Below, piece by piece: positions 4,615 to 42,447 of a DNA stretch of 64,000 bases. The DNA lies in the NCBI GenBank assembly GCA_963733035.1, contig CAVTBU010000005.1, positions 1-64,000 on the forward strand. Reading direction: 5' to 3'. Below the pieces are notes generated by a model, which was not told where the DNA came from, made no database searches, and saw nothing but the letters and a program-made list of their open reading frames with translations. Both the position numbers and the translations under genes were made by a program. This DNA is from Pirellulales bacterium. Lineage in GTDB: Bacteria > Planctomycetota > Planctomycetia > Pirellulales > PALSA-1355. Every line of letters begins with the position of its first letter. The stretch's first letter is position 1.

Positions 4615-5374
4615 CTGCAAGTTCAACCAATGAGCATCTTTGTCTGCACTTGTCCCGACGCGATCGGTGAACCCTGGATTGAACCACGCCCGCGGCTTTT
4701 TCAAATAGTTGTTCAGTGCCTAATGCTGCGACACGCCCTTTACAAACACCACCCACGATCTGCCGGGCGACCTCCCTGCCCTCGACTTCATCGCCAACCG
4801 GCGCTTCAACGCTCGACTTCAACATCGATAGCCACGCGATAGCCGATTTGAGCGACCATTGGCTTCGACTTTCGTCCAGCCCCTTGTGCCTTCCCTGTTG
4901 AGTTCGTTCAGCTCTTCGTTGAACTTGCTTCAAAGACTTTCGCCAAGGTCAATCTGAGCCGGTGCACTGGCAGAGGAAATCACCAGCACTCTCATGGCTT
5001 CCACAGCCTGATCAAGAATAGGTTGATCGTTGCGTCTCCTTCGCTCGTAAAAGTATCGTCCATTGCATCTTAACACGGAGCCTCGCGACGTGCGTGCATT
5101 ATCGCGTCGTCCGACACGTCAAAGGGACTTCGTGTCCGATGCATTCAGTTGGAGCAATTCGACGCTCGGACCGAGCCTTGTATACACCCTCAGCCTAGCG
5201 ATTAAGGCCCAACATAGTTTCTCGGGTATTCGACATGCACCTGCTTAATCTCGGCAGTCCAGCCGGGATATGCTGATTCCCAGAACGCATTGGGTTGTTT
5301 AAAATCAATGCCCCCTCCACTGAGCTAGGAATGCAATCCTTGAGGGCGGTGTCGATTTTGGCAGGGCACAACAG

Positions 5375-15000: not shown

Positions 15001-15542
15001 GCATTGATGCGAGGGTTCCTTCCGCCCGGCTTAAACAACCCTGACGCGACATTTTCCAGCAATTGCTGCTTCTCGCGAAGGTGGACGACGCCGCCGGCGG
15101 CGAAGAGCAGCTCGCCGACGCGGCCCTCGCCGCGGACCACCTCCTCACCCCCTTCACGGAGCCGCTCGTGGTCGATGCCGAAAACCGAGGTGAAGAATTC
15201 CGCGCTCACCCCGCCGAGCATCGTCTGTAGCGATACCTCGTCGATGGGCTGATCGTCGTCGCCGTCGCGAAGTGTTGAGCGGCGTCCCTTTCGTCGCACG
15301 CACCTCAGGCGCTGCCCCTGAGCGTCGACCAGCACGCCGCCAATACGGAGCTGCGGGTTGTTATGAACGAAGTTGTCGTTCGTTCTTTCGTCTATGCCGA
15401 ACAGCAGCGCATGAACCGCACGGAGCGCCGAACTCTTGCCCGCCTCATTAGGCCCGTACAACACATTCAAGCCGGGCTGCAGTTTGAGCGTGCAGTTGGT
15501 AAAAGGTCCATATGCGATCAACTTTAGTTCTTCGAATTGCAC
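12023..15542 (-). CDS. yhaN: YhaN-like Rad50/SbcC-type coiled-coil ATPase (frameshifts about 14240-14510)
   Basis: YGPF, Walker A YGPNEAGKSS, long coiled coil, signature MSDGARDQLYLALRL, Walker B IVDDILLTFDDDR, FFTHH. Confidence 0.85.
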
Positions 15543-15545
15543 GCG

Positions 15546-16790
15546 TCACCCCATCAACTCCGCGAGCAACTTGGCCTTCGCGTCGTGGAGCACGTCTCTC
15601 CACCAATCCTGGTCAGCACTATTGACGACGTCCTTCAATTCCGAGGGGAGTTTGCGACGCAGATCGTCGAAGTCGAGCCCCAGACACTCCGCCACAGACG
15701 ACTCGTTTGACAACTCTGTCACGATGGCAATTACTTCCGCCACAGGTGTATCATCGCCTCCGTCCATGTCGCTGTCGCGTGGCTGCTCCGCTTCACTGTT
15801 GACCTTTTCGATCCACAGACAGTCGGCGCCGATGTCAACGGCAATTGCCTGGACGTTGGCGGCCCATTGCCTCGGGTTAGCAGCTAGGTCCGACGCCAGC
15901 AGCGTCTTTCCCGTGAAGAGCACGCGGGCAGCCACTAAACGCCCGTCGGCGTTTTCGACCAGGATGCGGAGTGCTTCGTCGACGCGCTGCAGGGACTCGT
16001 CCTGGGTGTCCACACCGTCTAGCGAAACGATGGCGACCTCCCAGCGGAGGACGTCCAGGGGCTGAAACTCCGCGGTAACATCATGAGCATCATCGACGTG
16101 CACTAGCAGGCAACCTTTCGCGCCAGTTTCGCGGATGTGCCGGCCCTGGATGTTTCCCGGGTAGGCGATCGTTGGGCGGCTACCAGAGAGAACCTCGCGC
16201 TGGTGAATGTGACCAAGTGCCCAGTAGTCATAGCCGCTTTCCCGCAAGCAAGTCTCTGAGCATGGTGCATAGCTGTCGTGCCCCTCACGGCCAGTCATGC
16301 TAGTGTGCAAAATTCCCAAGTTGAAGCATCCGGAGACCGGCACGGGGTAGTCTTTGGCGAGGTCGTCGGTCATGCATTGGCTGGCAAAACTCTGACCATG
16401 CACCGCGACGTCGAGCCCATCCACCAGCCGAGTTTCTGCGGTGAGTGTCGGGAAGAAGTAGACGTTCTCTGGCAGCGGCAGGCGGCGGGTTATCTTGCTC
16501 GCCGCGTCGTGGTTGCCGTGGACTCCGAAGACCGGAATGCCCGCCTCGCGTAGCCGGCGCATCTGGTAGACGAAGAAAAGCCCCGTGTCGAAGTCCGGCC
16601 AGTCGCCGTCGTACAGGTCGCCAGCGAGGACTACGAAATCTACCGATTTGCGGATCGCAAACTCGACGAGGTTCTCCAAGGCCCTGCGGGTCGCTACGCG
16701 GATCTCTTCGACCGGTGCGCCTTCATACCGGCCTAGTCCCCGCAAGGGACTGTCCAAGTGGATGTCGGCGGCGTGCAGGAAGGTGAACAT
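15546..16790 (-). CDS. yhaO: YhaO-like Mre11/SbcD metallophosphoesterase nuclease
   Basis: HAADIHLDSP, AGDLYD, GNHD, LHT and ALGHIH motifs; 3 bp upstream of the yhaN-like gene. Confidence 0.9.
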   Translation of the reverse strand: MFTFLHAADIHLDSPLRGLGRYEGAPVEEIRVATRRALENLVEFAIRKSVDFVVLAGDLYDGDWPDFDTGLFFVYQMRRLREAGIPVFGVHGNHDAASKITRRLPLPENVYFFPTLTAETRLVDGLDVAVHGQSFASQCMTDDLAKDYPVPVSGCFNLGILHTSMTGREGHDSYAPCSETCLRESGYDYWALGHIHQREVLSGSRPTIAYPGNIQGRHIRETGAKGCLLVHVDDAHDVTAEFQPLDVLRWEVAIVSLDGVDTQDESLQRVDEALRILVENADGRLVAARVLFTGKTLLASDLAANPRQWAANVQAIAVDIGADCLWIEKVNSEAEQPRDSDMDGGDDTPVAEVIAIVTELSNESSVAECLGLDFDDLRRKLPSELKDVVNSADQDWWRDVLHDAKAKLLAELMG

Positions 16791-22811: not shown

Positions 22812-23369
22812 TTATCGAGCTAACGCTGCTGGATGCGGACTCAATTCGACTGCATCTTCCAGTTGCACCCGACGAATCCTTCCGTCACGCAGTCGGACGA
22901 TGATCTGCAACTCACCTTCAATCGCTCTCACGTAGTCAGCAAGCGTGCTGACCAAGACATCTTTTCGTCGCTCGATTTTCGAAATCTCTCCTTGCTGTCT
23001 TTCAAGAATCGCTGCGATCTCAGCCTGCGACAGGCCATTTTCCTTTCGAAGCTCTTTGAGACTGACAGCCGGCGGCGGAGAAGTGAAGGTCTGCGACAGA
23101 AGCAACGAGACAATTCGGCCGTAAGCGGCCTCTTCATCCTTGTAGACTTCATCGGCACCCTCGCCAAACACTTTCTCCGGCGAGGACGAGACGCCAAATT
23201 CTTTTCCCTGCTGCCACTGCACAATCACCGGATGCTTATTCAGGGCAATGTCGAGAAACCATGCGCCTGAGGCTTTGCGTGGCCGGTCCAGCGCAAGCTG
23301 AGCGTCTGGAAAACGATCCTTGAGAGTTCGCTCTAACTTCTCAATCGGCATCAAGGGTTTGTCAGCCAT
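22812..23369 (-). CDS. XRE-family HTH protein (HigA-like antitoxin candidate) with extra N-terminal domain
   Basis: LKELRKENGLSQAEIAAILERQQGEISKIERRKDVLVSTLADYVRAIEGEL. Confidence 0.8.
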   Translation of the reverse strand: MADKPLMPIEKLERTLKDRFPDAQLALDRPRKASGAWFLDIALNKHPVIVQWQQGKEFGVSSSPEKVFGEGADEVYKDEEAAYGRIVSLLLSQTFTSPPPAVSLKELRKENGLSQAEIAAILERQQGEISKIERRKDVLVSTLADYVRAIEGELQIIVRLRDGRIRRVQLEDAVELSPHPAALAR

Positions 23370-23746
23370 CAGTCACCTTGCTCTTTGTTAATGGAGAGGT
23401 CTGCACCCCGTCCGTCCGAGCCGCATTTCTCGAAAAGTACTTTTCCGTCGACATCCTGAATTTCGATTGCCCCGTTGTCGCGAATAAACGTGTTGTGCGC
23501 CTTATGTCGGTATCGAATGAGGTCGCTTCTTCTTTCGACTTCCCGGGCATTGTCATCTTCAGGTGGATACATTCGGCCATCGGTTTGCCAATGCTCTGGC
23601 TGAAACGGGATACTGGTAAATTCGTTTTCGACCTGGTTCAGGGTGTCACTCAAGAGCTTGAAGGCTTCGTCATGCGAACTCGCTGGTGTCGACTTCTCAA
23701 GGCGGTTCAGAAACTCTTGGAAGCGTTCTGCCTTACTCAGTCCCAT
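23369..23746 (-). CDS. Hypothetical protein, candidate toxin
   Basis: DGRMYPP...RYRHKAHNTFIRDNGAIEI; stop overlaps the start of the HTH gene (TGATG). Confidence 0.6.
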   Translation of the reverse strand: MGLSKAERFQEFLNRLEKSTPASSHDEAFKLLSDTLNQVENEFTSIPFQPEHWQTDGRMYPPEDDNAREVERRSDLIRYRHKAHNTFIRDNGAIEIQDVDGKVLFEKCGSDGRGADLSINKEQGD

Positions 23747-24260: not shown

Positions 24261-24292
24261 ATTTCCGGTTCGCAAATGTCACCGGTTGAAGA
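24261..24292 (+). promoter_or_regulatory. Bipartite motif copy 1 (putative alternative-sigma promoter)
   Basis: ATTTCCGGTT-N8-TCACCGGTTGAAGA, 6 bp before ATG 24299; matches 29210-29241. Confidence 0.65.
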
Positions 24293-24298
24293 TCTTGT

Positions 24299-25115
24299 AT
24301 GGACCAACTCCCCCCACCTACAGCTGCCGATTCGCCAAGTGCTGTAAGTCTGCCCGCGCTGACTCAGACGTACAAACGGAGTGGAGAGCCACTTCTGCGC
24401 TTCGCAGATGTGGAGTCAGAGATTCTGGCAGTGTTGGCGACTGATCCGGGAATTTGGTCTCCGGCTGCGTTGAAGAGTGAGACTCTGATTTACCTCATTC
24501 GATGGCTTTGGCGCATGCAACGATCAGAAAAACATCGGGAGAATGATTGAGTGCTTGGGAAAACGCATCGCTCAGATTGCGAGAGATTTCGCGTCGGGTT
24601 TCCCGCCCAACATCGCCGAAGACCTTGCGATTGAGATTGCCGAAGAGGTCAACCTGCTTATCTTCGCAAGCACGCCGAGTCGGCAAAGCGAGATTCTGGA
24701 AGTCGTCTTTCGCAGCGCGATTGAGCGGCGTGCGGTCAACAAACGCTCGAAAATCAAACAACGGTTGAAGCACGAAGTCAGCGAGTCGAGAATTCAAGCC
24801 AAGGATACTGGTGAGGACACCAACGGAATCATTGCCTCCCACTCGGACGGTAAACCAGATCCTGGCGAGATAGCACTGCTCGCTGAAGCACAACACCTTC
24901 GCCCCGAACGGATTCGAAAAGCACTTGCCGCTATCTCGAATCCACTTCATCGCGAGGCGGTCATTTTACATCATCTTCAAGGGTGGCAAATCTCAAGTAC
25001 AGCAAGCGCAATACCAACTCTCAGCACGCACTTTAAGAAGTCGTCGCGACAGATCCAGAATTGGCTCAAAGCGGCGATGAAGCAAATGCGTACTGCACTG
25101 GGAGAATCAATATGA
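24299..25115 (+). CDS. Sigma70/ECF-like factor (frameshift near 24515-24545)
   Basis: Region-4-like C-terminus RIRKALAAISNPLHREAVILHHLQGW...TLSTHFKKSSRQIQNWLKAAMKQMRTAL; region-2-like AEDLAIEIAEEV. Confidence 0.65.
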
Positions 25116-25735
25116 ACAGGAAGGACCAAGTGACAATCGAAGACCTCCTGGATGAAATCATGCTCCAGGAACCGGAACCCCAATACGACGCACTACTTCG
25201 TTGGTGCGAGCTCTACCCGGAGTATCGGGATCAGCTCACGAACTTCTTTGCGACGTGGGCGGAACAGAAAGAGCACGGCGAACGTCCTGAGATCGATGAA
25301 GATCGAGTCGCGAGCAGAATGGTCAGCCATGCTTTGAACTTGATTCACCACCAAAAAGCTCCGACTGCCGAAATGCGAGCCACGACCGAGTCTCGACTCC
25401 ACAAGATGATCCGAGCATCGGGATGTTCCGAACAGACCTTGATGGAGCAATGCAAACTCGATGACACGCTGCTGGCAAAGCTCGATCGCCACTTGATTGT
25501 TTTTGCGAGCATTCCTCAGCGATGTATTCAGGGAATTGCTGCGGCTCTGCAATTTGCCGTCGAGGATGTTTCGCGAGCATTGATGGGAGATCCAATTCCA
25601 TTGTCGAGCTACAAGGCGAAGGGAAAGCCGGTACTGCGACAGGAGCCGTTCCTCGACGCAGTCAAAACGTCAGAGCTTTCGACTGCGGTAAAGGAAGAAT
25701 GGAGACGAATCGTCACCAGCGAGACTTCTCACTAG
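25112..25735 (+). CDS. Hypothetical protein: helical anti-sigma-like N-terminus plus degenerate XRE-like HTH
   Basis: ATGA overlap with the sigma gene, GGAG RBS; LLRWCELYPEYRDQL and LHKMIRASGCSEQTLMEQCKLDDTLLAKLDR...IQGIAAALQFAVEDV. Confidence 0.6.
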   Translation: MNRKDQVTIEDLLDEIMLQEPEPQYDALLRWCELYPEYRDQLTNFFATWAEQKEHGERPEIDEDRVASRMVSHALNLIHHQKAPTAEMRATTESRLHKMIRASGCSEQTLMEQCKLDDTLLAKLDRHLIVFASIPQRCIQGIAAALQFAVEDVSRALMGDPIPLSSYKAKGKPVLRQEPFLDAVKTSELSTAVKEEWRRIVTSETSH

Positions 25736-25745
25736 GAACACCAAG

Positions 25746-28700
25746 ATGAGTGCGTGGAAGGAAGTTCGACGTTTGCGCAACAACGCCATAGCGAGTACGA
25801 TAATGGCGCGGACGCACTCATTCCGGCAAGTGCCCTTCTGGCTGCCGCACAAGCGGTAACAGGAATTAGGTTCATCAGTCGGCCTGCAGATGACACCCTT
25901 CTGGATGGAGCCGAGGCTGCATACGATCGAGAACGTCAGAGAATCTACTACTCGAATGCAACTCCGCTGCCGCTTGCGCATTTCCACATTGCGCATGAGT
26001 TTGCACACCACTGGCTCTATGAAGCCGCCGCGGCCTGCGCCAATGCGGATTTGGACCTGCTGGTTCCTTCAGAACCGGAGATGTCCTCCGTCGGAGATCA
26101 GGACTCGTATAGTCCCAAAGAACGAGCTGAAGCCCAGGCAAATCTATTCGCTAGAGAGTTTCTCCTCCCTCGAAACAAGCTTCGACAACGTTGTGCCAGC
26201 GATATTTCCCAAGCCGATGCCATCGCTAGCGAAATCGGCGTCCCGGTCGATCTTGTAATGCAGCAATTGGCCGACGCTCTGTTACTGCCAGCCGAAAGTA
26301 ATTTGCAATCTGAACCGCGCCCTGAAACCGAGCCAGACGCAAGCCAGCTAGAGGCAATCACCGCTACGGATGAGCCACGACAGGTCAGAGCAGGTCCTGG
26401 AACCGGAAAGACAAGAACTTTAGTCGGACGAATCGCCCACTTAATCAACAGAGGTGAAGAACCATCTTCGATTTTGGCACTCACCTACTCCAATCTGTCT
26501 GCTCAAGATCTGGCGAGTCGGATTAGTGCAGAAGTTGGAGAAAAAGCCACTGCGATTTGGTCCGGAACGTTCCATGCTTTTGGACTGGAACTTCTGCGAA
26601 AGCATGGGCACTTACTGGGCTTTGAATCTGAACCAAAGCTTCGCGATCGCACCGATTCATTGATGCTGCTGGAAGACCTGCTTCCATGTCTGGAACTGAG
26701 TCACTATCTCGATCTGCACGAGCCGATGCTGAAACTGCGCTCGATACTCGGGGCTATCGGTCGAGCAAAAGATGAACTCGCCTCACCTGACGACTACATG
26801 AATGCTGCCAGGGCGATGGCTGAGGAAGCTACCGACCAAGATTCACAGAAGGCGGCAGATCGAGCGATAGAAGTCGCCCGAATCTACGCAATCTACGAAG
26901 CAGCGTTGAGGGAGCGAGGCTTTGTCGACTTCGGCGATCTCGTCGCCTTGCCAATCAAACTGCTCCGTGATAACCCCGAGGTGCGAGAAGCAGTCCGCAA
27001 TGACAAGCGTCACGTTCTTGTCGATGAATATCAAGACATGAATCGCGCCAGCGCCTTGCTGCTCAAGGAACTTTGCACCCCAGGACGCGGACCGTGGGTT
27101 GTCGGAGATGTGCGACAATCGATCTATCGCTTCCGAGGTGCTTCACCGCTCAATATGGCTCGGTTCTCGCATGAGTTTCCTGGAGCACAGACAACAGACC
27201 TTTCTGTCAACTACCGCTCAGGCGGACGAATCGTGAAACTGTTCGAATCGTTTGGCCGAGGGATGGCGGCTGGTGCGAACGCTTCTACAGGAGCGCTGAC
27301 TGCAAATCGCGGAGAGAATCGCGGTACCGTTCAATACGACGTGGCGACGACTCGTGAGGCCGAAGCGCACGGCATCGCTAAGGAAATCCTGGCAAGAGTC
27401 GAGGCCGGTTCAAAATTCGCCGACCAAGCCATTCTCGCTCGATCGCATACAATCCTTTCGCGCCTTGCAAAGCAACTTGAAGGTGCTGGGGTGCCCTGTC
27501 TGTACTTCGGAGACTTTTTCGAGCGCCCCGAGATACGCGACCTGCTCTCACTCTTGTCTCTCGTCGCTGAGCCCAAAGGAGTTGGGCTTTTCCGTGTCGC
27601 GCAGCTGCCGATGTATGACGTGCCTGCTGAAGACATAGGCCTGTTGTTCCAAAGACGACGGGAGCAGCAAGAGACGATGCTCAAGACGCTTCGAGACTTT
27701 GCAAGCGTGCCGGGTTTCAGCCAACGCGGACGTGAAGGCTTAGCCAGGCTTGTCGCCGATGTTCAGGATGCAACATGGCCTCTGTCGCCGCATCGTTTTC
27801 TGATGTCGTATCTATTGAGGCGAAGCGGATATCTGCAACCCTTCATGGCAGATGACACCGTTCCAGGCCAGCAGCGGCGGCTCGCCATCTACCAACTGCT
27901 ACAGTTCGCCTTCGCGTTTAAACCGTCCAAGAATGACGATCCGAAGCAAGCTTTTCTGGCACACGTTCGTCGACTCGAAATTCTTGACGAAGAGAAGCAG
28001 CTACGGCAGTTGCCCGCCGCGGTCAGCGACATCGATGCTGTTCGGTTGATGACAGTGCATTCGAGCAAGGGGTTAGAGTTTCCGATCGTTCATATCCTTG
28101 CCCTGACCGGCACTCAGTTTCCGGCCCCCAACAGATACGAGCCGTGTCCGCTTCCACCGGGACTGCTTAGTTCCGACGTTTTGATGACCAAAGATGCAGA
28201 AGAGGACAGCCTGTTCTTCGTTGGAGCGTCCCGCGCCAGAGATGGTTTGCACCTTTCGCGAGCGCAGACAAATGGCATGCGCAATACGAGGCCCTCGCGG
28301 TTTCTCGAAACGGTGTCTTCGCATTTGCCACACCGCATAGACGTATCGCCTCGGTGGACCGGCGACGGGATTTCCGAGCCGACTTTTCCCCTGCTCGTTG
28401 GGCGTATGGCGAACGACCAGTGGACAGCAGGGGAAATCGAGACCTATATCGATTGCTCTCGCCGGTTCTACTACGATCACGCCTTAGAACTTGGCGGAGC
28501 AGACGCCGCCTCGCCGTTTCTCAAGTTCCAATCAGCACTGCATTCGAGCATGGCTTGGTTACGCGAAACCGCATCGGCAGACCAACGACGGGATGGCCTA
28601 ATCGCCCGCTTTGAGGAGGACTGGGAAAAATTCGGCCCAGGCGATCATCCTTTCGAGCCGCTCTACCGCCGCATGGCGAAGGCCATGATCGAGGCGGCGC

Positions 28701-29119
28701 ACGGGGTGATGAGCGGTGAGAACTTGCCCGCTGATCGGCAAGTTGTCGCGCCCGGAAGTGGCGCGGTCATCAGTTGTCGCGCAGATCAGATTGAACGCAC
28801 GCCGAATGGAATCGTCATCCGTAGGTTGAAGGCCGGCCGTCTGGCCAAAACCGAAAATGACAAACCGCGATACATTCTTCTGCAGGTTGCCATTCGCACC
28901 GACCATCCCAACGAAGAAGTCCACTTCGAGCATGTATCTCTGCTCGATGGTGAGTGCCGAACCGCAACCGACAAATCGAAAAAAGCGGGCGACAAGTTGA
29001 AGGCTTGCGAAAGCGCCATTGCAGCAGCCGGTAACGGAAGCTTCGACCCGAGCCCAAGTCAACGCTGCCCGTCCTGCCCGTACTTCTTTATCTGCCCGGC
29101 CCACGGCCCTACTCGCTAG
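25746..29119 (+). CDS. ImmA/IrrE metallopeptidase / UvrD helicase / PD-(D/E)XK-like Fe-S domain fusion (probable frameshift just after ATG 25746)
   Basis: FHIAHEFAH...EAQANLFAREFLLP; AGPGTGKT, VDEYQD, VGDVRQSIYRFRGA, NYRS, TVHSSKGLEF, VGASRAR; YIDCSRRFYY...CPSCPYFFIC. Confidence 0.9.
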
Positions 29120-29209
29120 GCAGCAAGTTTCTGTCAGGACAGATTCGTCGCTTGGCGGCTGTGCTGCGCTCACGAGTCTCTCCCCGCATCAAAAATTTGT
29201 GCGGCTGAC

Positions 29210-29241
29210 ATTTCCGGTTGGGCTCTCTCGCCGGTTGAAGA
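29210..29241 (+). promoter_or_regulatory. Bipartite motif copy 2, upstream of bilA
   Basis: ATTTCCGGTT-N8-TCGCCGGTTGAAGA, 59 bp before ATG 29301. Confidence 0.65.
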
Positions 29242-29300
29242 AAGTGTGAGGCCAATGATGGCCGACAAGCTTCAACCAGTAACGAGAGAGGAAAATCCCA

Positions 29301-29795
29301 ATGTCGCAAATTCAATTATTCCTGCAGTTCGAAGGCAGTGGCAGAGTGGAGCTCATCCAACTCGACAGCGAAGCCTTGGTCGCTGACGTGTTGGAAGCCG
29401 CCGTGAAACTCGGATTCCCCGACAATCATCGTGCAGATGCGCATGTCTTCGGTCCCGATGACGAATCCCCGCTCAAGCCCACTGTTCCGTTGAGCAAACA
29501 AGGAATTTGCGACAAGCAGCGTGTGCACATTCACCGCTGCCGCAAAGTCGAAGTCACAATGCACTTCAACGAGCTGACTGAGGTCATGCAGTTCCCGCCT
29601 GCGAACACGGTCGACCACGTGAAGAAACGCTTCGTCCATGCGATTGGTATGTCGCCCGTCGATGCTACCGAGCACGTGCTTCAAATCTGCGGCTCCAACG
29701 ACCGCCCGGAGGCGGACGCGCAAATCGGCACCCTGGTGTGCGGGTGCTGCTCGCTCTGTTTCAACCTGGTCCCCATCAAGCGAGTCGAGGGCTAG
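29301..29795 (+). CDS. bilA: Tandem ubiquitin-like protein (BilA-like)
   Basis: Two beta-grasp-like units, C-terminal ...IKRVEG ending in Gly; first gene of a Ubl-E2-JAB-E1 operon; GAGAGG RBS. Confidence 0.8.
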
Positions 29796-29814
29796 TCACT
29801 TGGATACAAGCACC

Positions 29815-30288
29815 ATGCGTCCCGATGAACGTGCCTTCCGCGACCACGTCGCGGCGGGTGCGTTCCAACTCGGGGCTCACCTCAATCGTTGGAAGCTGGG
29901 TTCAATCGCCTGGCCTATCGTGCAGATTGCCGTCGCAGCGGCAGCTCGCGATGGGGCTCCAAATGAATACTGGTTTCGCTTCGATTGCAGTGGCTATTCG
30001 CAAGAGGCTCCCACGGCTCGGCCGTGGGATCACGAAGCTGACCAGCCGCTTCCATTCAATCGATGGCCCGATGGTGCGTCGCGGATTCCAGCGGTCTTCA
30101 GACCCGGTTGGAAAGACGGAACTTGCCTCTACCTGCCCTGCGATCGAATCGCTGCGGTGGGGCACGAAAACTGGCGAAATGAATACCCCGCACTTCAATG
30201 GTCGCCAAGCCGAGGTGTGGTCCTCTACTTGGACGAACTTCATTCCTTACTCAATTCAAGCGACTACAAAGGAGCGCGAGGTGGCTAA
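29815..30288 (+). CDS. bilB: E2-like conjugating enzyme (BilB-like)
   Basis: [19 protein letters not shown] and CLYLPCDR candidate catalytic Cys; operon position. Confidence 0.8.
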
Positions 30289-30766
30289 ACCGCTGATTCG
30301 ATTCCAGCGCAGTCTTTGGCTTCGCTGCATGACGGAGCTTCAAATCAGGAGCCACGGTCGGCACGAATCCGGGTGCTTCATTCTCGGAAGCGTCAAAGGT
30401 GATAAACGACAATCGCGTCGTTGCGTGTTCTACGATGAGCTTGACCCGCACGCATATTCGAGCGGCGTCTGCATCTTGCAAAGTGACTCGTTCACCCGCC
30501 TTTGGGAAATCTGCCGCGCAGAAAAGTTGACCGTCATCGCCGATATCCACACACACCCTGCCGGGGCGTTTCAAAGCGAAGCGGACCGAACAAACCCCAT
30601 GATTGCCCGCGCCGGTCATCTTGCGATCATCGTTCCGAACTATGCGTTTGGATGGATGTGGCGTCACCGGCTCGGTGTTTTTCAGTACGAAGGTGACCAT
30701 CGTTGGACCAACCTCAGCGGTTGGCAGGCCCGCTCCGTCCTCAAAGTCAGTTGGAGTTTTATATGA
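30281..30766 (+). CDS. bilC: JAB/MPN metallopeptidase (BilC-like deubiquitinase)
   Basis: HESGCFILG...IHTHP...QSEAD JAMM motif; GTG start with GGAG RBS overlapping the E2 stop. Confidence 0.88.
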
Positions 30767-32154
30767 TTCCAGAAGCAATGCCTTTCACCAGTGTTGACAG
30801 CGGTATGCCGAGCGCCGATACGCTCAATCGCGTTGTGAAAATCGCGATTGACAGTGGCGAAGTCACAACCGTTGCCGCCGGGTATGACCTGCTCCGCACG
30901 TATCGTGTTGGCGTTCGTGTTGGCCCAGAGGTTCAGAATTCTACTGCTCATCAGGCTGCCTTGCTGACGATCGTCAATATCGCGCGCCGTGCCCTACTTG
31001 GTGGCGTCTACATCGAAGGGAGTCTCGACACTCCGCTGCTGGTTCCGGTTCCTGGCCAACAAACACTTGCTGGAGCCGTGGCCGCCCTCGGCGGGCAGGC
31101 GATTAACGAAATTGCAGGGACTATGCCCACGCTGATTCTGGGCAATGTGACTAGCAATTCGAACGAGCACGAGGTTGGCCTGAATGTCATCTTCAGCGAT
31201 TGGCGCGGAGGCGTTGTGCCACAAGCCGATTCACACTCGCCATCCGCACAGCAGGCAATCACACCAGCAGCAGTTCTTGCTGCGGCGATTGCCGTCTCCG
31301 AGGTCTTTCAAAACTTGCGTGGCAACCCAATGGCCGGTCGGCGGCCGGTCGGCCTTTCGCTCTGGATCCCGGAGTCGATTGATTGGGAAAATGCCCCTGC
31401 CGGTCCGCTCGACATCGTATTCCCGTCGAACCTTTGGCTGATTGGGCTCGGCCATCTTGGGCAAGCCTATCTGTGGGTGCTCGGCTTGTTACCCTATGCA
31501 GACCCTTCGAAGGTGATGCTCTATTTGCAGGATTTCGATCGGCTTGCCGCGTCCAACGACAGCACCTCATTGCTCACCAGCGGCGAGCTTGTTGGTCGCC
31601 TCAAAACCAGGGCGATGGCGGAGTGGGCAGAAGCACGAGGTTTCAACGCAAGAGTCATCGAGCGCCCATTCCCCGGCGGAATGAAGGTGACCGAGAAGGA
31701 ACCTCGATTGGCACTTGGAGGTGTCGATAATCCGCAAGCACGGGCCGCATATGAAGATGCAGAATTTGACTGGATTGTTGAATCCGGATTGGGGGCAGGT
31801 CCGACGGAATACCTTGCCCTGCGCCTTCACACATTCCCTGCAACTACCACGGCACGCCGGAAATGGAGTGATGTTGATGTACATCGTGCCCCAGGGCCGA
31901 ATGTAGCTGCTTACCAGGATTTGTCGGCCAAGGGCATGGATGACTGCGGATTGGTTCAACTCGCCACGCGGTCTGTGGGGGCACCGTTTGTCGGCACGGT
32001 GGCCGCGTCGCTTGTCATCGCTGAAGTCCTGCGTTTTCTAAATGGAGGTCCTAGGACAGAGGTGATCGACATGACTCTTCGCGACCCAGGCAGTCGGTCA
32101 GTGGTGTCGGCAACGACTCAGTTAAATGGCTTCAATCCAGGTTTCACCTACTAA
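30763..32154 (+). CDS. bilD: E1-like activating enzyme (BilD-like)
   Basis: IGLGHLG nucleotide loop, QDFD, GGVDNPQAR, candidate catalytic DDCGLV, VGAPFVG; long N-terminal inactive-adenylation-like region; ATGA overlap with JAB. Confidence 0.85.
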   Translation: MIPEAMPFTSVDSGMPSADTLNRVVKIAIDSGEVTTVAAGYDLLRTYRVGVRVGPEVQNSTAHQAALLTIVNIARRALLGGVYIEGSLDTPLLVPVPGQQTLAGAVAALGGQAINEIAGTMPTLILGNVTSNSNEHEVGLNVIFSDWRGGVVPQADSHSPSAQQAITPAAVLAAAIAVSEVFQNLRGNPMAGRRPVGLSLWIPESIDWENAPAGPLDIVFPSNLWLIGLGHLGQAYLWVLGLLPYADPSKVMLYLQDFDRLAASNDSTSLLTSGELVGRLKTRAMAEWAEARGFNARVIERPFPGGMKVTEKEPRLALGGVDNPQARAAYEDAEFDWIVESGLGAGPTEYLALRLHTFPATTTARRKWSDVDVHRAPGPNVAAYQDLSAKGMDDCGLVQLATRSVGAPFVGTVAASLVIAEVLRFLNGGPRTEVIDMTLRDPGSRSVVSATTQLNGFNPGFTY

Positions 32155-32575: not shown

Positions 32576-33598
32576 TCAAGCCACAGACACTTTTTCCTGC
32601 CACACCTGGCCCTGGCGGAGCATCGCATGCATCACGCGGGCCAGGTAGTGGGCCGTGGCCACCAACGCGATCTTCTTTCGGTCATCGGCGCCTTGATGAA
32701 TGCGCTCAAAGAAGTGGCGGATCGTCGGGAATCGCCGCACTCCTTGCCAAGCTGCCTCAGTCAACAGCTTTCGCACCGTCGCTGGTCCTTCGCGTGTAAT
32801 GTGCCCCAGCCGGTTCATCGAGCCCGATTGGTCCTGAGCAGGAACCAGACCAAAGTAACAGCCGATCGACTTGGTCGTGCGGAATCGGCTGGGGTCATCG
32901 AGATAAGCCGCCATCGCCTCCGCGGTGCGTGCGCCGACACCGGGGATCGTTACCAACAACGCGGAAGCTCCGCTCGCCTGCGAATGGCGTTCAAGCTGCT
33001 TCTCCACACGACGGAGCTGTTCGCTGAAGACGTGCAGCTCCTCTACCAGCAGGTCTCGGCGCATAGCATAGAGAGGGCTGGGCAGTTCGAGCCGTTCCAG
33101 CCAGTATAAGCCTTGCTTGGTCCACAGACCGAACTCCGAGGGGACCGCAATCCCCAGGCTGCGCAACAACCCTCTCAAAGAATTCTTTGCTCGTGTTCGT
33201 TTGTCGATGACCTGCGTCCGGTACTCGATCAGCTGACGCCAGGCTCGCACATCCCCTGACGGAACGTAGACGCCGGGAACCTCGTTCAAAAATAGTAGCT
33301 TCGCCAGCTTCTCGACGTCCACGCGATCGTTCTTGCGCTTGGAGCGGAAGATCAGTCGCAATTGCCCGGGATGGGGCACCACCACGCGCTGGCACACCGG
33401 TTTGAGCAACTCGTAAATGCGTCCGTAACCGCAGGAGGCCTCGTAGCATATGCTGACGGGACCATCCAACACTTTAAGTTGGTCGGCAATGCCCGACCAA
33501 GGACCTCGCACCCTCACCTGTTTGATCCTGCGACCGTTCTTGTCAAGTACACACATCGAAGTGTGCCCGAGGTGAACATCCAAACCGACGAAATACAT
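32576..33598 (-). CDS. IS110-family transposase/recombinase
   Basis: VGLDVH, YEAS, KNDRVD, IPGVG, GLVP..QSG, GHITREG. Confidence 0.95.
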   Translation of the reverse strand: MYFVGLDVHLGHTSMCVLDKNGRRIKQVRVRGPWSGIADQLKVLDGPVSICYEASCGYGRIYELLKPVCQRVVVPHPGQLRLIFRSKRKNDRVDVEKLAKLLFLNEVPGVYVPSGDVRAWRQLIEYRTQVIDKRTRAKNSLRGLLRSLGIAVPSEFGLWTKQGLYWLERLELPSPLYAMRRDLLVEELHVFSEQLRRVEKQLERHSQASGASALLVTIPGVGARTAEAMAAYLDDPSRFRTTKSIGCYFGLVPAQDQSGSMNRLGHITREGPATVRKLLTEAAWQGVRRFPTIRHFFERIHQGADDRKKIALVATAHYLARVMHAMLRQGQVWQEKVSVA

Positions 33599-33743
33599 CG
33601 TGAAGCCTCCTTCGTACGAGGAACGACACGGACCAAGTAGCCATCGTACCGCTCAGGCTTCCTACATAGAGTCATTTGCAGCGCGGCACATATCGCAATC
33701 GGCGTAACCGCAAGCGGCGCAATCGCTTGACAAAAAATCAGGT

Positions 33744-33765
33744 GCAGGTTCAAATCCTGTCGCCC
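33744..33765 (+). other. tRNA 3'-end remnant (T-arm), probable att core
   Basis: GCAGGTTCAAATCCTGTCGCCC, 17 bp from the integrase stop; no rest of a tRNA upstream. Confidence 0.65.
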
Positions 33766-33782
33766 TTCTTCACCTCCCACTC

Positions 33783-34628
33783 TCAATACCCCACCCTCTC
33801 AACCCCTTCCGCCAACTGATCTCCACTCCGTTGCGAATACCGGCTTGTGGTCTGCAGATTCTCGTGCCCCAAGATCTGAGCAAGGGACACGAGATCGTTC
33901 CCATTGTCTGCCAAGAACTGTTTGGCAAACGTGTGTCTGAACAAGTGCGGGTGAAGGCGAACGCCGATCAAAGTCGAGTATTTTTGGCAGAGTGCCCTTA
34001 CGCCATCGTCAGTGATAGGACCTCGCTCGCCAATAAAGACTTTGCTAGAAACCGGAGGGCGAGTCTCCAAGTATTCCTGCAGCGCCCGACGAGCCGGCAA
34101 GGGTAACGGCACAGTCCGCTGCTTGCCGCCCTTGCCATGCCGAAAAACTACTGACCCTGCTCGCTCTCCGATCATCAAGTCTCTCAGTTCAAGATTCACA
34201 AGATCAGACACCCGGCAACCCGTGTAGAGTAGCAATGCAAAGATTGCTCCCGCCCGAACGTCCTGCCGCAGTTCGATCTCGCGCAGCAACCGCCGAACGT
34301 CTGCACGTTCAAGTCCTTTGGGAGCCAATTGCTGCCGCCGCAGTTCCTTCACACCTTTGGCTGGATTGGCTTCCAATCGCCCTTCAACCACCAACCACTC
34401 GAAGAACCTTCGGATCATCACCAGCGCACGATTGATGCTGGCGATCGCCTGCTTTTGTTCCCGGTGCAGATGATTTCGAAAATCCACGACGTCTCGTAGC
34501 GTCGTTCGTTTCACCGTGAAAGGTTCTTGGTTCGCCTCGACGAACCAACTGGCGAACTTCCGGAGGTCGTTGCGAATGGCGCGGCAGGTATGCTCGGAGA
34601 AGTCATGGGCGTCCAGGTAAGCCGCCAC
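33783..34628 (-). CDS. XerC/D-like tyrosine integrase (true start probably near 34715 across a frameshift)
   Basis: YTGCRVSD, GKGGKQRTVP, HPHLFRHT, LGHENLQTTSRY; all catalytic residues present. Confidence 0.93.
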   Translation of the reverse strand: MAAYLDAHDFSEHTCRAIRNDLRKFASWFVEANQEPFTVKRTTLRDVVDFRNHLHREQKQAIASINRALVMIRRFFEWLVVEGRLEANPAKGVKELRRQQLAPKGLERADVRRLLREIELRQDVRAGAIFALLLYTGCRVSDLVNLELRDLMIGERAGSVVFRHGKGGKQRTVPLPLPARRALQEYLETRPPVSSKVFIGERGPITDDGVRALCQKYSTLIGVRLHPHLFRHTFAKQFLADNGNDLVSLAQILGHENLQTTSRYSQRSGDQLAEGVERVGY

Positions 34629-35788: not shown

Positions 35789-36733
35789 CTATCCAGCTGC
35801 GTGTTCATAGCCAGTGCCCGTCAATTGCCGCCGACCTTGGTCATCCTTGATGACCAGCCCCGCACGAATGAGGAACGGTTCACTGACACTGGAGATCGTC
35901 CTGGCAGGCAACCCCAGCAGCGAAGCGATGACGTTTAATCGCTGCGGACCGTCCCTGAGAATGGCAAGGTATCGCTGCTCAATGGGACCAAGCCCGATCT
36001 CGTCGATCTGTTCCAATGCGCACGCACGAGACAAATGATCCAATATGATGAATCTTTCGCCCTGTGCGCGGCACACTCGGTAGCACGCCTGCAGCAATCT
36101 CAAGGCAAGCCGTGGCGTTCCTCGGGATCGCTGAGCGATGAGCGGCAGCACCTCTTGATCGACCTCCCACCGAAGACTTCTCGCTCGGTGCCGAATCACG
36201 GTCGCCAGTTCATCTTCGCTGTAGAAGTCGAAACGTAACACCAGCCGCATTCTTTGGCGCAGAGGGTCGAGCAAAGCGTACTCATCTGTCGTGCTCAGCA
36301 GCAAAGTGAAGTCAGCAATCGGCAACGTCTGGATGCTCTTGCCACCACTCACAAAAAGTTTTCTTTGGTCCAGAGCTAGGTAGAGATTTGTTTGCAGGGC
36401 AGGCTTAATCTCATGAGCCTCATCGACATGACACACTGATTTGTCGCGTGCGCTCAACAGAAACGCATTCAAATCTCCAGGCGTCGAGATGCTTTGCCCG
36501 ATCACCTCGTGAAAATCGGTTGCCATCTCGCTGGCGATCACTCGTGCCATGGCACTCTTGCCGCAGCCCGGTGGACCGACGAGTAGGCACGAGTCCATCT
36601 TCCTGCCATCTTCAAACGCAGCATCTAACGCAACACGAACTTGCTCGACGACACTTCGTTGCCCAGTGATGTGGCTCAGGCTAGAAGGGGAAACGTCCCC
36701 GATTTCTAGATTGTTGCTGTCGTCCATCATCAA
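35789..36733 (-). CDS. ruvB: RuvB-like AAA+ ATPase (orphan paralog)
   Basis: GPPGCGKS, VDEAH, PLRQRM, SRGTPRLALRLL, C-terminal winged helix EPFLIRAGLV. Confidence 0.88.
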   Translation of the reverse strand: MMMDDSNNLEIGDVSPSSLSHITGQRSVVEQVRVALDAAFEDGRKMDSCLLVGPPGCGKSAMARVIASEMATDFHEVIGQSISTPGDLNAFLLSARDKSVCHVDEAHEIKPALQTNLYLALDQRKLFVSGGKSIQTLPIADFTLLLSTTDEYALLDPLRQRMRLVLRFDFYSEDELATVIRHRARSLRWEVDQEVLPLIAQRSRGTPRLALRLLQACYRVCRAQGERFIILDHLSRACALEQIDEIGLGPIEQRYLAILRDGPQRLNVIASLLGLPARTISSVSEPFLIRAGLVIKDDQGRRQLTGTGYEHAAG

Positions 36734-37624: not shown

Positions 37625-38557
37625 CTAAACCTCTTGCAGGTTGCTGCTTTCGAGCTCGGTGGCACGGCTGAAGCTCAGGATGAATTCTGACGCCTTGGAT
37701 GCCTGACTGGCGGCTTGCAGGATGGCACGAGGATCGCTTTCCAGGTGCTTGAGCCAGGACGCCAAGTAGGATGTGTGATTCGTCAGGTCGTCCGACGACG
37801 GCACGCCGGTCTGGGCACAGAGGTAGCACGCCCCGATCTCGGCAATGAGTTCGCCAAGGGCGTAACTTCCCTGCCAGCCTAGCCGCACTTCAGACCAGTG
37901 CACCAATTCGTGGAAACTGGTCGAAACGAAGTCTTTCTGGGAAGCGAACTGACTTGGGTGCGGAATCTGGATGTAGTCGCCGCCGGTGTGGTGGGGAAAT
38001 TCCCCACTCGGTCGCACGTAGAAAGCCTTGTCGCCGCCGAAGTGAAACTCAGCCTCGGTCGCCTGGATTGCGGTTCGAGCGGATTCAAAGTCGGGTTCGA
38101 GCGAAGACGACTCAGAATCGGCAATGGATCGAAGGTGATCGACGCTTTCGCCGTCCACCTGATCGACGTTGAAAACTGTGTAGTATCGGAGCAGAGGGAA
38201 GGATCTGGACCTTCTCCTCGCCGTCCTCGACCTTGATCCGTTTGATCTTCTTGTAGAAGACGATTTGGGTGCCCCAACATCCTGGTTTCACGTTGTCTGG
38301 GCGCTTTTGGACCTGAGCGCCTAGACTTACCCATTGCTGGTAGGTGCCCCAGTGACGGCTCGCATAGCCACGGGACATCGCCACGAGGTCGAGCAGAATG
38401 GGATTTACGCCCGAGTAGGGACGCTTAGAGATGACGTTGGCAGGGAGCCTGAGTTCTTGCCGGGCTGCCAGGGCTTCCGCCAGGGGACGACCCCGTTTTT
38501 GAGTCCTTCGATGATGCGGTCGGTGATGTGCTTCTGGATGTCGGCTTGGCTGGGCAT
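37625..38557 (-). CDS. ardC: ArdC-family antirestriction protein (ssDNA-binding plus zincin-like domain), frameshifted
   Basis: ITDRIIEGLKNGVVPWRKPW, YSGVN, WGTYQQW, FHELVHW, YALGELIAEIGA, SYLASWL. Confidence 0.88.
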
Positions 38558-40072: not shown

Positions 40073-40221
40073 GGCAGCAGATCATTCTGCATCACAGCGA
40101 GCGACTTCACTACAAAGTTCAATCGTTGATTGCCCTGCCCCACCTCTGGTAGACTTGCTCAGCCGCCCCGAGCGGGTGATGTGGGCTCTTGTGTAGTTAC
40201 CAACAATGGACGGGCGCATTT

Positions 40222-41238
40222 ATGGCAGTGTGGTTAGTTCGGGCAGGGAAGCACGGCGAGAACGAACAGTCAGCCATCGAGAACAAACTCGTCACCATTG
40301 GTTGGAATGAGTTGTCCGACCTATCGCCGTTCCAGAGCCGAGAGGCATTGACCGACCTCTTCGTGCAGGCTCATCCGAACGACTCGAAGCCCAAGGTTTC
40401 GAATGAGGTCGGGCAAATCTGGGCTTTCCGTGGAAGGATTGAGGAAGGTGATCTGGTTGTCCTGCCGCTCAAGACCCAATCGGCGATTGCCATCGGCAGG
40501 GTCGCTGGACCATACAACTACCGAACGGACCTCGGCGATTCCGTCCATCACACTCGAAGCGTCGAGTGGTTGAAGACCGACTTGCCTCGAACGACCTTCG
40601 ATCAAGACATCCTGCATTCGTTCGGCGCATTCATGACGGTTTGCCAGATTAGTCGCAACAATGCGGAGGAACGAATCCGAGCAATCATTGGCGGAAAGTC
40701 TCACCCAGGTGGAGGGAGCAAGTCAGACGACGAGCCAGAAGATGAAACCGAATCTTCGCTCGACATCGAACAAGCCGCCAAGGATCAAATTCTCAATCAC
40801 ATTCAAAGCAAGTTCGCTGGACACGCACTTGCCAGAATTGTTGACGCAGTTCTTCAAGCCGAAGGATACTTGACCCGTGTTTCACCTCCTGGTCCCGATG
40901 GTGGCGTAGACATCCTCGCAGGCACTGGACCGATGGGCTTCGGAGAACCGAGACTTTGCGTGCAAGTCAAATCATCTTCGTCACCCGCCGATGTGAACAT
41001 CCTGCGTGGTTTGCAAGGCATTCTTCAGAATTTCCACGCCGACCAAGGTTTGCTCGTCTGCTGGGGTGGGTTCAAGACCTCAGTGCTTCAGGAAGCCCGC
41101 CAGAGTTTCTTTACGATTCGTCTATGGGATTCTGGCGACCTCCTCGCAGCGATCCTGCGTAACCACGACAAGTTTCCCGACGAACTTCAGGCAGAGTTAC
41201 CCTTGAAACGGATTTGGGCGTTGGTGTTAGAGGACTAG
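40222..41238 (+). CDS. Mrr-family restriction endonuclease
   Basis: WLVRAG N-terminus; PGPDGGVDILA...CVQVKS (D-QxK). Confidence 0.88.
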   Translation: MAVWLVRAGKHGENEQSAIENKLVTIGWNELSDLSPFQSREALTDLFVQAHPNDSKPKVSNEVGQIWAFRGRIEEGDLVVLPLKTQSAIAIGRVAGPYNYRTDLGDSVHHTRSVEWLKTDLPRTTFDQDILHSFGAFMTVCQISRNNAEERIRAIIGGKSHPGGGSKSDDEPEDETESSLDIEQAAKDQILNHIQSKFAGHALARIVDAVLQAEGYLTRVSPPGPDGGVDILAGTGPMGFGEPRLCVQVKSSSSPADVNILRGLQGILQNFHADQGLLVCWGGFKTSVLQEARQSFFTIRLWDSGDLLAAILRNHDKFPDELQAELPLKRIWALVLED

Positions 41239-41246
41239 GAAATCAA

Positions 41247-42211
41247 ATGGCAAACAACCTCTCCGAAATTGAAAAACGGCTCTGGGAATCGGCGGACCAA
41301 CTGCGTGCCAATTCCAACCTCAAATCGTCCGAGTACTCGGTGCCGGTGCTCGGGCTGATCTTCTCTGCGCTACGCCGATCACAAGTTCTCCATCGCCGAG
41401 CAGGAACTGGCGGGCAAGGGGTCGGGGCGGCGAAAGATCGGCAAGGCGGACTATCAAGCCCAAGGCGTGATGTATCTCCCGCCCGAGGCTCGCTTCTCAA
41501 AACTGCTTGAACCTGCCCGAGGGAGAGAACATCGGCAAGGCGATCAACGAGGCGATGAAGGCGGTCGAAGCCGAGAACGACGAACTGAAAGGCGTCCTGC
41601 CGAAGACGTACACCAGGATTGAGAACTCAACACTAGTCACGCTGCTGAAGACGTTCTCGCAGATTCCGATGGACATCGAGGGCGATGCCTTTGGGAAAAT
41701 CTACGAATACTTCCTCGGCAATTTCGCCCGTGCCGAAGGTCAGAAGGGCGGCGAGTTCTTCACGCCCACCTCACTTGGTCCGGCTCATCGTCGAGATCAT
41801 CGAACCCTATCACGGTCTGATCTTCGATCCCGCCTGCGGATCGGGCGGCATGTTCGTTCAAAGTGCCGATTTCGTCAAAGCACATAAGAAAAGTCCCAGT
41901 GCCGAGATTTCCATCTACGGTCAAGAACGGGTGGACGAGACTCGACAACTTTGTCTGATGAACCTCGCCGTCCATGCCCTGTCGGGCGAAATCCGTGAAG
42001 GCAACAGTTACTACGAAGACTTGCACAAAAGCGTCGGCAAGTTCGACTTCGTATTGGCTAATCCGCCGTTCAACGTGTACAAGGTGGACAAGGAGAAGAT
42101 CAAGGACGACCCTCGGTTTCCGTTTGGGATGCCACGGGCGGACAATGCCAACTACCTGTGGATTCAATTGTTCTACAGCACCTTGAACGCCAAAGGTCGC
42201 GCGGGCTTCGT
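41247..42211 (+). pseudogene. hsdM: Type I R-M methyltransferase HsdM, frameshifted and 3'-truncated
   Basis: [33 protein letters not shown]; homology stops at GRAGFV; no hsdS or hsdR follows. Confidence 0.88.
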
Positions 42212-42447
42212 TGGAGTTCCCCCCGTGAAATGAACCAGTGCGAAAATGGTGAGGCCACTATTTCTTGATATGCGATTTGGGCGAATACCGTACGTGACCA
42301 CATTGCTGAAGCAACTCGACTCATCCGACACGGCGGCGCACTGACGCGACTCGGCTTCTGACCCACGCACACAGTAGTTTGTCGGCATTCTCCGAGGTCC
42401 AGAGCTTGTTCGATCCGTTCCAATAAGGACACTTGGAGTAGTCGGCA

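Follow-up and report, generated by a model that had tools for sequence, protein, structure and literature searches.

A seven-gene row at positions 24261-32154 (+ strand) of a 64,000-nucleotide stretch of a Pirellulales bacterium (assembly GCA_963733035.1, contig CAVTBU010000005.1, positions 1 to 64,000; hereafter the window) was analysed. We judge it rather probable that this region is a mobile anti-phage cassette in which a three-gene, protease-gated sigma controller (a sigma-like protein, a partner called g2 and a peptidase-helicase fusion called g3) is joined to a type I BilABCD operon. In the proposed mechanism, the sigma factor would recognise a private two-block promoter before its own leaderless gene and before bilA. 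At rest, the N-terminal domain of g2 would hold sigma, sitting between sigma2 and sigma4, and the XRE domain of g2 with its conserved tail would probably serve the M78 peptidase domain of g3 both as a handle and as the region that it cuts. Because the GAF domain of CapP and IrrE is replaced in g3 by a helicase and an iron-sulphur (Fe-S) nuclease-like domain, engagement of abnormal DNA by g3 (single-stranded DNA (ssDNA), ends, or intermediates of phage replication or damage) would switch the peptidase on. Cleavage of g2 would then free sigma, which would amplify its own operon and transcribe bilABCD. Such a positive switch had been proposed in a preliminary description made from the sequence alone; it is well supported by comparison and modelling, and we infer the cleavage of g2, the DNA signal and the release of sigma.

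The row was described beforehand as seven co-oriented, tightly spaced genes. Orientation and spacing agreed with the list of open reading frames (ORFs) of the window, which holds eight ORFs rather than seven because the first, sigma-like gene is broken. The features are as follows (lengths in amino acids, aa).

About 24262-24291, + strand: sigma-gene copy of the two-block promoter-like motif, TTTCCGGTT-N11-CCGGTTGA
24299-24550, + strand: sigma-like gene, N-terminal piece, 83 aa; residues 1-72 in frame, then 11 out-of-frame residues and a stop
24514/24515, + strand: one-base insertion, the frameshift of the sigma-like gene (DNA and protein alignments)
24519-25115, + strand: sigma-like gene, C-terminal part in the second frame; ORF of 190 aa from the ATG at 24543, with most of sigma2, the linker and sigma4
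25112-25735, + strand: g2, the partner, 207 aa; ATGA overlap with the sigma stop
25754-29119, + strand: g3, the peptidase-helicase fusion, 1121 aa (Pfam domains)
About 29211-29240, + strand: bilA copy of the two-block motif, upstream of bilA
29242-29272, + strand: stem-loop where the bilA mRNA is predicted to begin, inner stem 29250-29263 (folding)
29301-29795, + strand: bilA, ubiquitin-like, 164 aa (PADLOC BilA)
29815-30288, + strand: bilB, E2-like, 157 aa (DUF7665, 2e-61; PADLOC BilB)
30281-30766, + strand: bilC, JAB/JAMM deubiquitinase-like, 161 aa from a GTG start (Prok-JAB; PADLOC BilC)
30763-32154, + strand: bilD, E1-like, 463 aa, ATGA-coupled to bilC (PADLOC BilD)

Conservation of the cassette was followed through an alignment of g2, which was mapped by tblastn to 58 loci (5 genome and 53 metagenome). 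The sigma gene adjoined g2 in 54 of these, and the other four were cut at or near a contig end. g2 was matched over at least 150 aa in 26 loci. Among the 26, 21 had at least 400 nucleotides (nt) of downstream DNA, with the M78-helicase gene next in all but L024 (20 loci); 12 had at least 5.5 kb downstream, and three or four Bil genes were present in 11 of these. Two loci cut by a contig end (L011 and L023) brought the Bil loci to 13 in all. Hosts named for the fetched loci were Planctomycetaceae, Acidobacteriota, Isosphaera and Sphingomonas metagenome-assembled genomes. At least 80% of g3 was present in 86 plasmid records; nine regions were inspected, plus four found with BilD, as follows.

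Cassette with Bil: Sinorhizobium medicae pMl5, Aminobacter SR38 pSR7, Bradyrhizobium quebecense
Cassette with Bil: Xanthomonas euvesicatoria 85-10 pXCV183, Variovorax WDL1, Sphingorhabdus YGSMI21 (sigma gene cut by IS256)
Cassette with a Bub-like operon (Multi_ubiq, DUF6791-ThiF, DUF6527): Acinetobacter defluvii, Leptolyngbya boryana, Mesorhizobium NZP2077
Cassette followed by IS66: Pseudomonas koreensis
Sigma, g2 and Bil without g3: Cupriavidus EM10 plasmid p352-2 (L077), 4641-10356
HTH_3 and Peptidase_M78 pair in the same slot before Bil: Paraburkholderia caffeinilytica plasmid p1 (L078), 6264-10380
Bil without a regulator: Burkholderia cepacia

The same gene order recurred across phyla. The expected co-occurrence of the three controller genes with each other and with ubiquitin-like defence operons was borne out in the fetched loci and the plasmids, and chance adjacency of the genes was rejected on the conservation counts. 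A controller specific to Bil, as first envisaged, is too narrow a description because the same cassette also precedes Bub-like operons. Among the comparisons, the strongest argument that the cassette regulates the operon downstream of it is its replacement, in that position before Bil, by a CapH/CapP-like pair; in P. caffeinilytica this pair (HTH_3 and an ImmA/IrrE peptidase) is co-directional with the Bil-like operon. In Cupriavidus EM10, a 295-aa gene on the opposite strand stands in the place of g3. The cassette with a Bub-like operon was common on large Acinetobacter plasmids (45 records, including clinical isolates; for example pOXA58_010030, L068), and the Acinetobacter plasmid cassette lies beside mercury-resistance genes and insertion sequence (IS) elements.

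Each of the 14 type-A loci inspected carried the motif TTTCCGgTT-N11/12-cCGGTTGA before the sigma gene and again before bilA, which fits the earlier suggestion, made from sequence, that sigma would transcribe itself and bilABCD. In the window, TTCCGGTT-N11-CCGGTTGAAG occurred twice (before the sigma gene and before bilA; 0 expected), and a looser pattern gave 4 sites in the 6.6 Mb genome versus 2 for a reversed control. The sigma-gene copy stood at the same place in 13 related loci, usually with an A/T tract a few bases upstream of block 1. The end of block 2 was separated by 7-9 nt (9 nt in the window) from the start codon of the sigma gene, a distance that implies a leaderless mRNA. In distant cassettes the blocks differed between loci and agreed within a locus (both sites read CGATCAG (CCGATCAG) in Aminobacter, GCGACTT in Xanthomonas and CGATTA in Bradyrhizobium), as is predicted for co-evolution with a cassette-encoded factor. 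The second copy survives in P. koreensis before the IS66 insertion. No sigma70-consensus site was found on the + strand of the region. The asymmetry of the motif and its fixed distance from the start codon argue for a promoter over a repressor or dimer operator.

A GC-rich hairpin was predicted 8-12 nt after block 2 in each of 18 effector leaders folded singly (the window, L002-L004, L010, L011, L014, L016, L021, L023, L029, L067, L068 and L070-L074). Hairpin z-scores were negative in all 18 (-0.93 to -6.01), at or below -1.86 in 14, and -1.98 in the window. The position was kept and the sequence and loop length varied between loci; RNAalifold on a MAFFT alignment of the 18 leaders gave no consensus pair, the hairpins being misaligned and differing in sequence or loop. 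This hairpin is probably where the bilA or Bub mRNA begins, and our guess is that it stabilises the mRNA.

The partner was searched and modelled. Relatives of about 207 aa were found (48 sequences), none with a Pfam domain. Window g2 was absent from the ESM Atlas, and a 92%-identical homologue led only to unnamed clusters and some HTH_31. The g2 model (predicted local distance difference test (pLDDT) score 80) comprised an N-terminal helical domain (about 6-84), a disordered variable linker (79-92), an XRE-type helix-turn-helix (HTH, 92-160) and a tail with the conserved stretch PIPLxSYKAKGKPxLRQExFLDAV. The HTH matched NGO0477 (Z 7.8), the CapH N-terminal domain (7t5u, 6.2), DdrO (6rnz, 6.1), SinR (6.0) and ImmR (7t8i, 5.9), the CapH, DdrO and ImmR scores being tied with those of other XRE domains. 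The ATGA-coupled, helical and XRE-like partner of the preliminary description was thereby confirmed, both in its overlap with the sigma stop and in its XRE fold.

The sigma:g2 complex was modelled with ipSAE scores of 0.85, 0.86 and 0.85, versus 0.21 for the best control. The mark set for this score was reached by 116 of 157 solved complexes and by 2 of 215 mismatched pairs. Separate runs agreed on at least 76% of the contacts, with a partner pLDDT of 79 or more. The modelled interface joined g2 6-84 to sigma 71-153 (sigma2) and 205-244 (sigma4), so placing the g2 N-terminal domain between the two sigma domains; in the model, this is the geometry of a cytoplasmic anti-sigma domain, in line with the anti-sigma role that had been proposed for the partner.

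The sigma structure was modelled on a full-length homologue, P0004 (81% identical to the window's pieces; 12 aligned sequences; pLDDT 76). All of the top 50 Foldseek rows for this model were sigma factors, the best being sigma32 8hkc_E (E 2.5e-3). VIA-align matched SigL 6dv9_F (Z 9.9 over 164 residues), many sigma4 domains (Z 8-9.3, root-mean-square deviation (rmsd) 1.8-3.3 Å, 63-77 residues) and sigma2 domains (2mao, Z 7.5, 99 residues, rmsd 3.9 Å; 2o7g, Z 6.3), although, by the tool's own warning, helical proteins often reach Z values of this size. The assignment was made because the match list was uniform and both domains were matched in order. A profile of the sigma family against the Protein Data Bank (PDB) gave SigK as best match (0.011), with collinear stretches in regions 2 and 4. 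The family comprised 920 representative clusters at E<=1e-3 and 505 at E<=1e-10. At its N-terminus the protein is extended by 55 additional residues, among them a conserved PLTQ..DG.PY.R motif. Judged from the model, the protein is probably a divergent two-domain sigma70-family factor resembling the extracytoplasmic function (ECF) type, with both folds that a sigma factor was expected to have. Besides the tool's warning, the profile searches speak against the assignment: Pfam gave no match on the window's sigma pieces or on P0004, and the family fell below Pfam thresholds (Sigma70_r4_2 in 7 of 74 members, best E 1.9e-6; Sigma70_ECF in 1 of 74). Pfam, NCBIfam and PADLOC likewise gave no match for the window's two sigma pieces or g2, barring sub-threshold sigma matches to the C-terminal piece (NCBIfam PRK09047, 16.6 bits versus a cut-off of 173).

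Domains of g3 were assigned by Pfam as Peptidase_M78 (37-170, 3.5e-11), UvrD (196-476) with UvrD_C, and PDDEXK_1 (889-1115). Residues 196 to about 860 form a UvrD/PcrA-type superfamily 1 (SF1) helicase matched by PcrA, Rep, UvrD and AddA models. The GAF domain of CapP and IrrE is absent, as the M78 domain ends at 170 and UvrD begins at 196. Residues 1-195, used as query, returned 227 clusters (90% identity); all 120 clusters listed had UvrD helicase domains and nearly all had Peptidase_M78, most listed relatives being about 1120 aa long with a C-terminal PDDEXK domain. Relatives included proteins of Tautonia, Bryobacterales, Devosia, Sinorhizobium, Rhizobium and Chloroflexota. Invariant in 36 aligned g3 sequences were H81, E82 and H85 (HExxH; HEFAH in the window), the Walker A residues G214-K219, DEYQD 424-428 and further helicase motifs, Cys901, Cys1105, Cys1108 and Cys1114 (a C...CxxCx5C pattern) and, in the nuclease-like domain, D1011. 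The HExxH peptidase-UvrD-Fe-S fusion recognised in the preliminary description was confirmed by these three domains and four cysteines. Motif III of the nuclease-like domain, which was assigned by position and to that extent inferred, read R-x-K or another non-acidic form in all 36 sequences, not (D/E)-x-K. Because the acid was missing throughout, the domain was read as probably DNA-binding rather than DNA-cutting. Helicase models, PDDEXK_1 and the cysteine pattern are shared by g3 with the SF1 helicases AddA, RecB and PcrA and the Fe-S nucleases AddB and Cas4; unlike these, g3 is fused to a peptidase, has R-x-K at motif III, has no partner subunit and is encoded in a regulatory cassette.

The downstream operon was matched end to end by the PADLOC models for BilA (1-162 of 162, E 2.6e-46), BilB (3-157 of 159, E 9.7e-61), BilC (11-165 of 168, E 4.2e-60) and BilD (3-449 of 453, E 1.4e-161), which confirmed the Ubl (ubiquitin-like protein)-E2-JAB-E1 order read earlier. 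We take these models to have been built from the type I system. In phmmer searches of PDB sequences, BilD, BilB and BilA had no match, and only BilC matched, weakly, the Ensifer aridi type II deubiquitinase (DUB, BilC; 8tyx_B, 1.3e-6). With an end-to-end PADLOC match and a poor E. aridi match, the type II label given to the operon beforehand is unsupported: the proteins do not group with those of E. aridi and, by sequence comparison, the operon is a type I (ISG15-like) BilABCD. When 400 further genomes sampled from this phylum were searched, the BilD model had no match. The bilA product ends in PIKRVEG followed by the stop, with Gly as the last residue; a fully conserved Gly is the last residue of Bil Ubl proteins in the available part of Hör et al. 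(10.1101/2023.09.04.556158), whose type I Bil also has the Ubl-E2-JAB-E1 order and a Ubl of about 160 aa ending in Gly. Unlike the window, Bil is there a four-gene operon without an upstream sigma, partner or helicase-protease, and the words helicase, upstream and promoter each had 0 occurrences in that part of the text.

Several observations weigh against the protease-gated sigma controller. The Bil of Collimonas was described as a four-gene system (available part of Hör et al., 10.1101/2023.09.04.556158). The N-terminal domain of g2 (6-57) matched only unrelated three-helix pieces (Z 4.6-5.6), with no detectable match to an anti-sigma fold, and the complex model may in part echo sigma/anti-sigma structures that have already been solved. 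The protease is not obligatory, since g3 is lacking from Cupriavidus EM10 and from L024, where sigma and g2 stand without g3 or Bil and are followed by a DUF6262 protein and a TonB-like receptor. In 32 class-B loci the partner shared only the N-terminal domain of g2, and the protease was present in 0 of the 22 with downstream DNA. The partner carried a PadR-like winged helix in place of the XRE domain in L033 (1589-3018) and L036 (607-2104). The most conserved disordered stretch of g2 (158-180) lies C-terminal to the HTH, where it is analogous to the CapH cut site; a cut there would leave the anti-sigma domain on the HTH, so that further degradation or lost dimerisation or oligomerisation must be assumed. 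The variable linker (79-92) is an alternative cleavage site. The cleavage step is the weakest link of the mechanism. Lastly, the sigma gene is frameshifted in the window. From the g3-less and class-B loci, it appears that the sigma/anti-sigma pair can work with other inputs. Class-B sigma genes have a two-block motif ending just before the ATG (...TCCGAAT...CG.TTTACATAGTATG), and the class-B loci (L030-L058) were without Bil and had varying neighbours (VapBC, TonB-type receptors).

Two other accounts of the cassette were weighed against the sigma controller. The switch could be one of de-repression, with g2 a CapH-like repressor acting on the shared motif, g3 a CapP-like protease and the sigma-like protein an accessory activator. 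The XRE fold of g2 does match the DNA-binding domains of CapH, DdrO and ImmR, CapH/CapP pairs can take the place of the cassette ahead of Bil and have been reported next to Bil and Bub operons, and the PadR of class-B partners, another DNA-binding domain, suggests that DNA binding matters. This account is nevertheless unlikely: the motif is asymmetric, its two unlike blocks keep a constant spacing and its distance to the sigma start is held at 7-9 nt, all of which resembles a promoter rather than a dimer operator; the g2 N-terminal domain is placed on sigma in the complex model (0.85 versus 0.21); and sigma adjoins g2 in 54 of 58 loci. De-repression and sequestration of sigma are not mutually exclusive. 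The other account makes g3 itself the effector, a defence helicase-nuclease like AddAB/RecBCD or Gabija GajB that sigma and g2 would regulate, with the link to Bil and Bub a matter of co-residence in defence islands. The strong matches of g3 to GajB and other UvrD models, its intact helicase motifs and Fe-S nuclease-like domain, and the cassette without an effector in P. koreensis would all fit. We regard it as very unlikely, given that motif III was R-x-K, not (D/E)-x-K, in 36 of 36 sequences, that the M78 residues are invariant, for which an effector nuclease has no need, that the second promoter copy always stands directly before the ubiquitin-like operon (and is kept in P. koreensis, where IS66 comes next), and that gene order with Bil or Bub is fixed across phyla.

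The state of the controller in this genome was considered separately. Of 17 relatives found for the 190-aa ORF, the 15 with full query coverage and typical length were 234-272 aa, and in a protein alignment the first 72 residues of the relatives aligned to the separate 83-aa ORF in a different frame. In a DNA alignment with a 92%-related locus (L001), the window had one extra base at 24514/24515 (GGCGCATGCAAC versus GGCGT-TGCAAC). Programmed frameshifting was rejected at this site, a slippery sequence being absent and all 17 homologues being single-frame. A profile search found no second intact sigma copy in the assembly (10 contigs, 6.6 Mb, 92% complete), in which this copy, in two frames, is the only one. 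No public sequencing run was listed with at least half of the sampled words of the stretch, and no RNA run was listed. The extra base is either a real inactivation or an assembly error. Thus the sigma-like factor of the preliminary description stands in that its full-length homologue has sigma2 and sigma4 folds, and fails in that the gene is not intact here; because it is frameshifted, the sigma/anti-sigma switch is probably inactive in this genome, unless the extra base is an assembly error. We give an even chance to the account in which the controller here is a decaying remnant, the frameshift being real, sigma not made and bilABCD silent or transcribed by read-through. The extra base is present relative to L001 and all 17 homologues, the genome is without an intact sigma paralogue, an IS110 transposase and an integrase adjoin the locus, and the IS256 insertion in Sphingorhabdus is another sigma inactivation. 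Set against these, the other six genes are all intact and close to their relatives, and a single-base error is possible in an assembly of 10 contigs and 92% completeness.

For the protease-gated sigma controller in general, known systems were compared. CalpL-CalpT-CalpS reportedly comprises a cA4-activated SAVED-Lon protease, and its proteolysis is said to release an ECF-type sigma from an anti-sigma. According to the parts of the sources that were available, CalpL-CalpT-CalpS (type III CRISPR) and DdvS/DdvA (Myxococcus) both respond to an antiviral signal by releasing an ECF-type sigma from its anti-sigma, and they are precedents for sigma-based defence control. Compared by description, their sensors differ (a SAVED-Lon protease and a transmembrane anti-sigma, respectively), they have no M78 peptidase, helicase or XRE protein in those descriptions, and their target genes are others. 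The pairs CapH/CapP, IrrE/DdrO and ImmA/ImmR, as described in the available texts, resemble the cassette in having an M78 HExxH peptidase and an XRE protein, with CapH/CapP lying beside a defence operon. Unlike CapP, the cassette peptidase has no GAF domain, its fusion partners being a UvrD helicase and an Fe-S nuclease-like domain; unlike CapH, g2 carries an extra N-terminal domain that is modelled on sigma; and unlike CapH/CapP, the cassette has a dedicated sigma and a private promoter, with its genes co-directional with the effector. The dedicated sigma and private promoter imply an activation logic, not only de-repression. The cassette combines two known logics, that of CapH/CapP and that of sigma/anti-sigma.

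In the available text of Lau et al. (10.1101/2022.04.27.489752), CapP is ssDNA-activated and cuts CapH just after the HTH (F82/R83), and in 24 CBASS systems capH/capP are found 'alongside a predicted sigma70-family sigma factor'. CapH/CapP were reported in 25 of 162 type II Bil operons, with no helicase mentioned in the text available (Chambers et al., preprint), and, among 544 Bub operons, CapH and CapP were reported with 168 and CapW with 43 (Ye et al., preprint, in part). CapK/CapS (EMBO J 2026, text available in part) is a different gene pair. In the literature searched by full text, the cassette was undescribed except for the sentence of Lau et al. (10.1101/2022.04.27.489752); some '+CapP' entries of supplementary tables may be helicase fusions. 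The earlier belief that a sigma-based, helicase-coupled controller of Bil was undescribed therefore holds in the literature searched, with that one sentence, from a source available in part, placing a sigma beside capH/capP. More broadly, and at slightly less than an even chance in our estimate, the cassette represents an undescribed and widespread class of immune controller, in which an M78 protease coupled to a helicase would read abnormal DNA and destroy a cytoplasmic anti-sigma of a new kind (an anti-sigma domain fused to a DNA-binding domain), freeing a private, self-amplifying sigma, translated from a leaderless mRNA, to turn on Bil and Bub, with the PadR and protease-less pairs forming a broader family of regulators that serve other signals.

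If the proposed mechanism is true, it adds a positive, self-amplifying switch for costly or self-harming immune systems, wired to both bacterial ubiquitin-like pathways (Bil and Bub), and its helicase sensor would be a much more specific reader of DNA structure than a GAF domain. The controls of immune expression known to us (CapW, CapH/CapP and CapK/CapS) are all repressors relieved by DNA damage. The cassette is common and is carried on plasmids of culturable bacteria that are not pathogens (such as Sinorhizobium, Aminobacter and Leptolyngbya), so the model is directly testable, and the private promoter, leaderless sigma gene and conserved 5' hairpin offer concrete handles for reporters.

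The surroundings of the locus were inspected in the window. An IS110-family transposase and a tyrosine recombinase lie directly 3' of bilD (32576-34628, - strand), followed farther downstream by a RuvB-like AAA protein (35789-36733), a zincin MPTase-PolyVal protein (37625-38158), an Mrr-type restriction nuclease (40189-41238) and a short N6_Mtase fragment (41685-42233). With the IS110 transposase, integrase, Mrr-like nuclease and methylase fragment alongside, the locus was read as what looks like a mobile or defence island. Immediately 5' of the cassette (22812-23746, - strand) lie an ORF of 124 aa and, overlapping it, a protein of 184 aa with an XRE HTH at its C-terminus. Farther upstream (12023-16790, - strand), an AAA_27/AAA_23 ATPase (14421-15542) and a calcineurin-like phosphoesterase (15546-16790) adjoin an unannotated 737-aa protein; the ATPase and phosphoesterase form an SbcCD/YhaN-like pair, possibly a further module of defence. 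On the Sphingorhabdus plasmid (L076), too, Bil is followed by a YhaN family protein and a DNA repair exonuclease.

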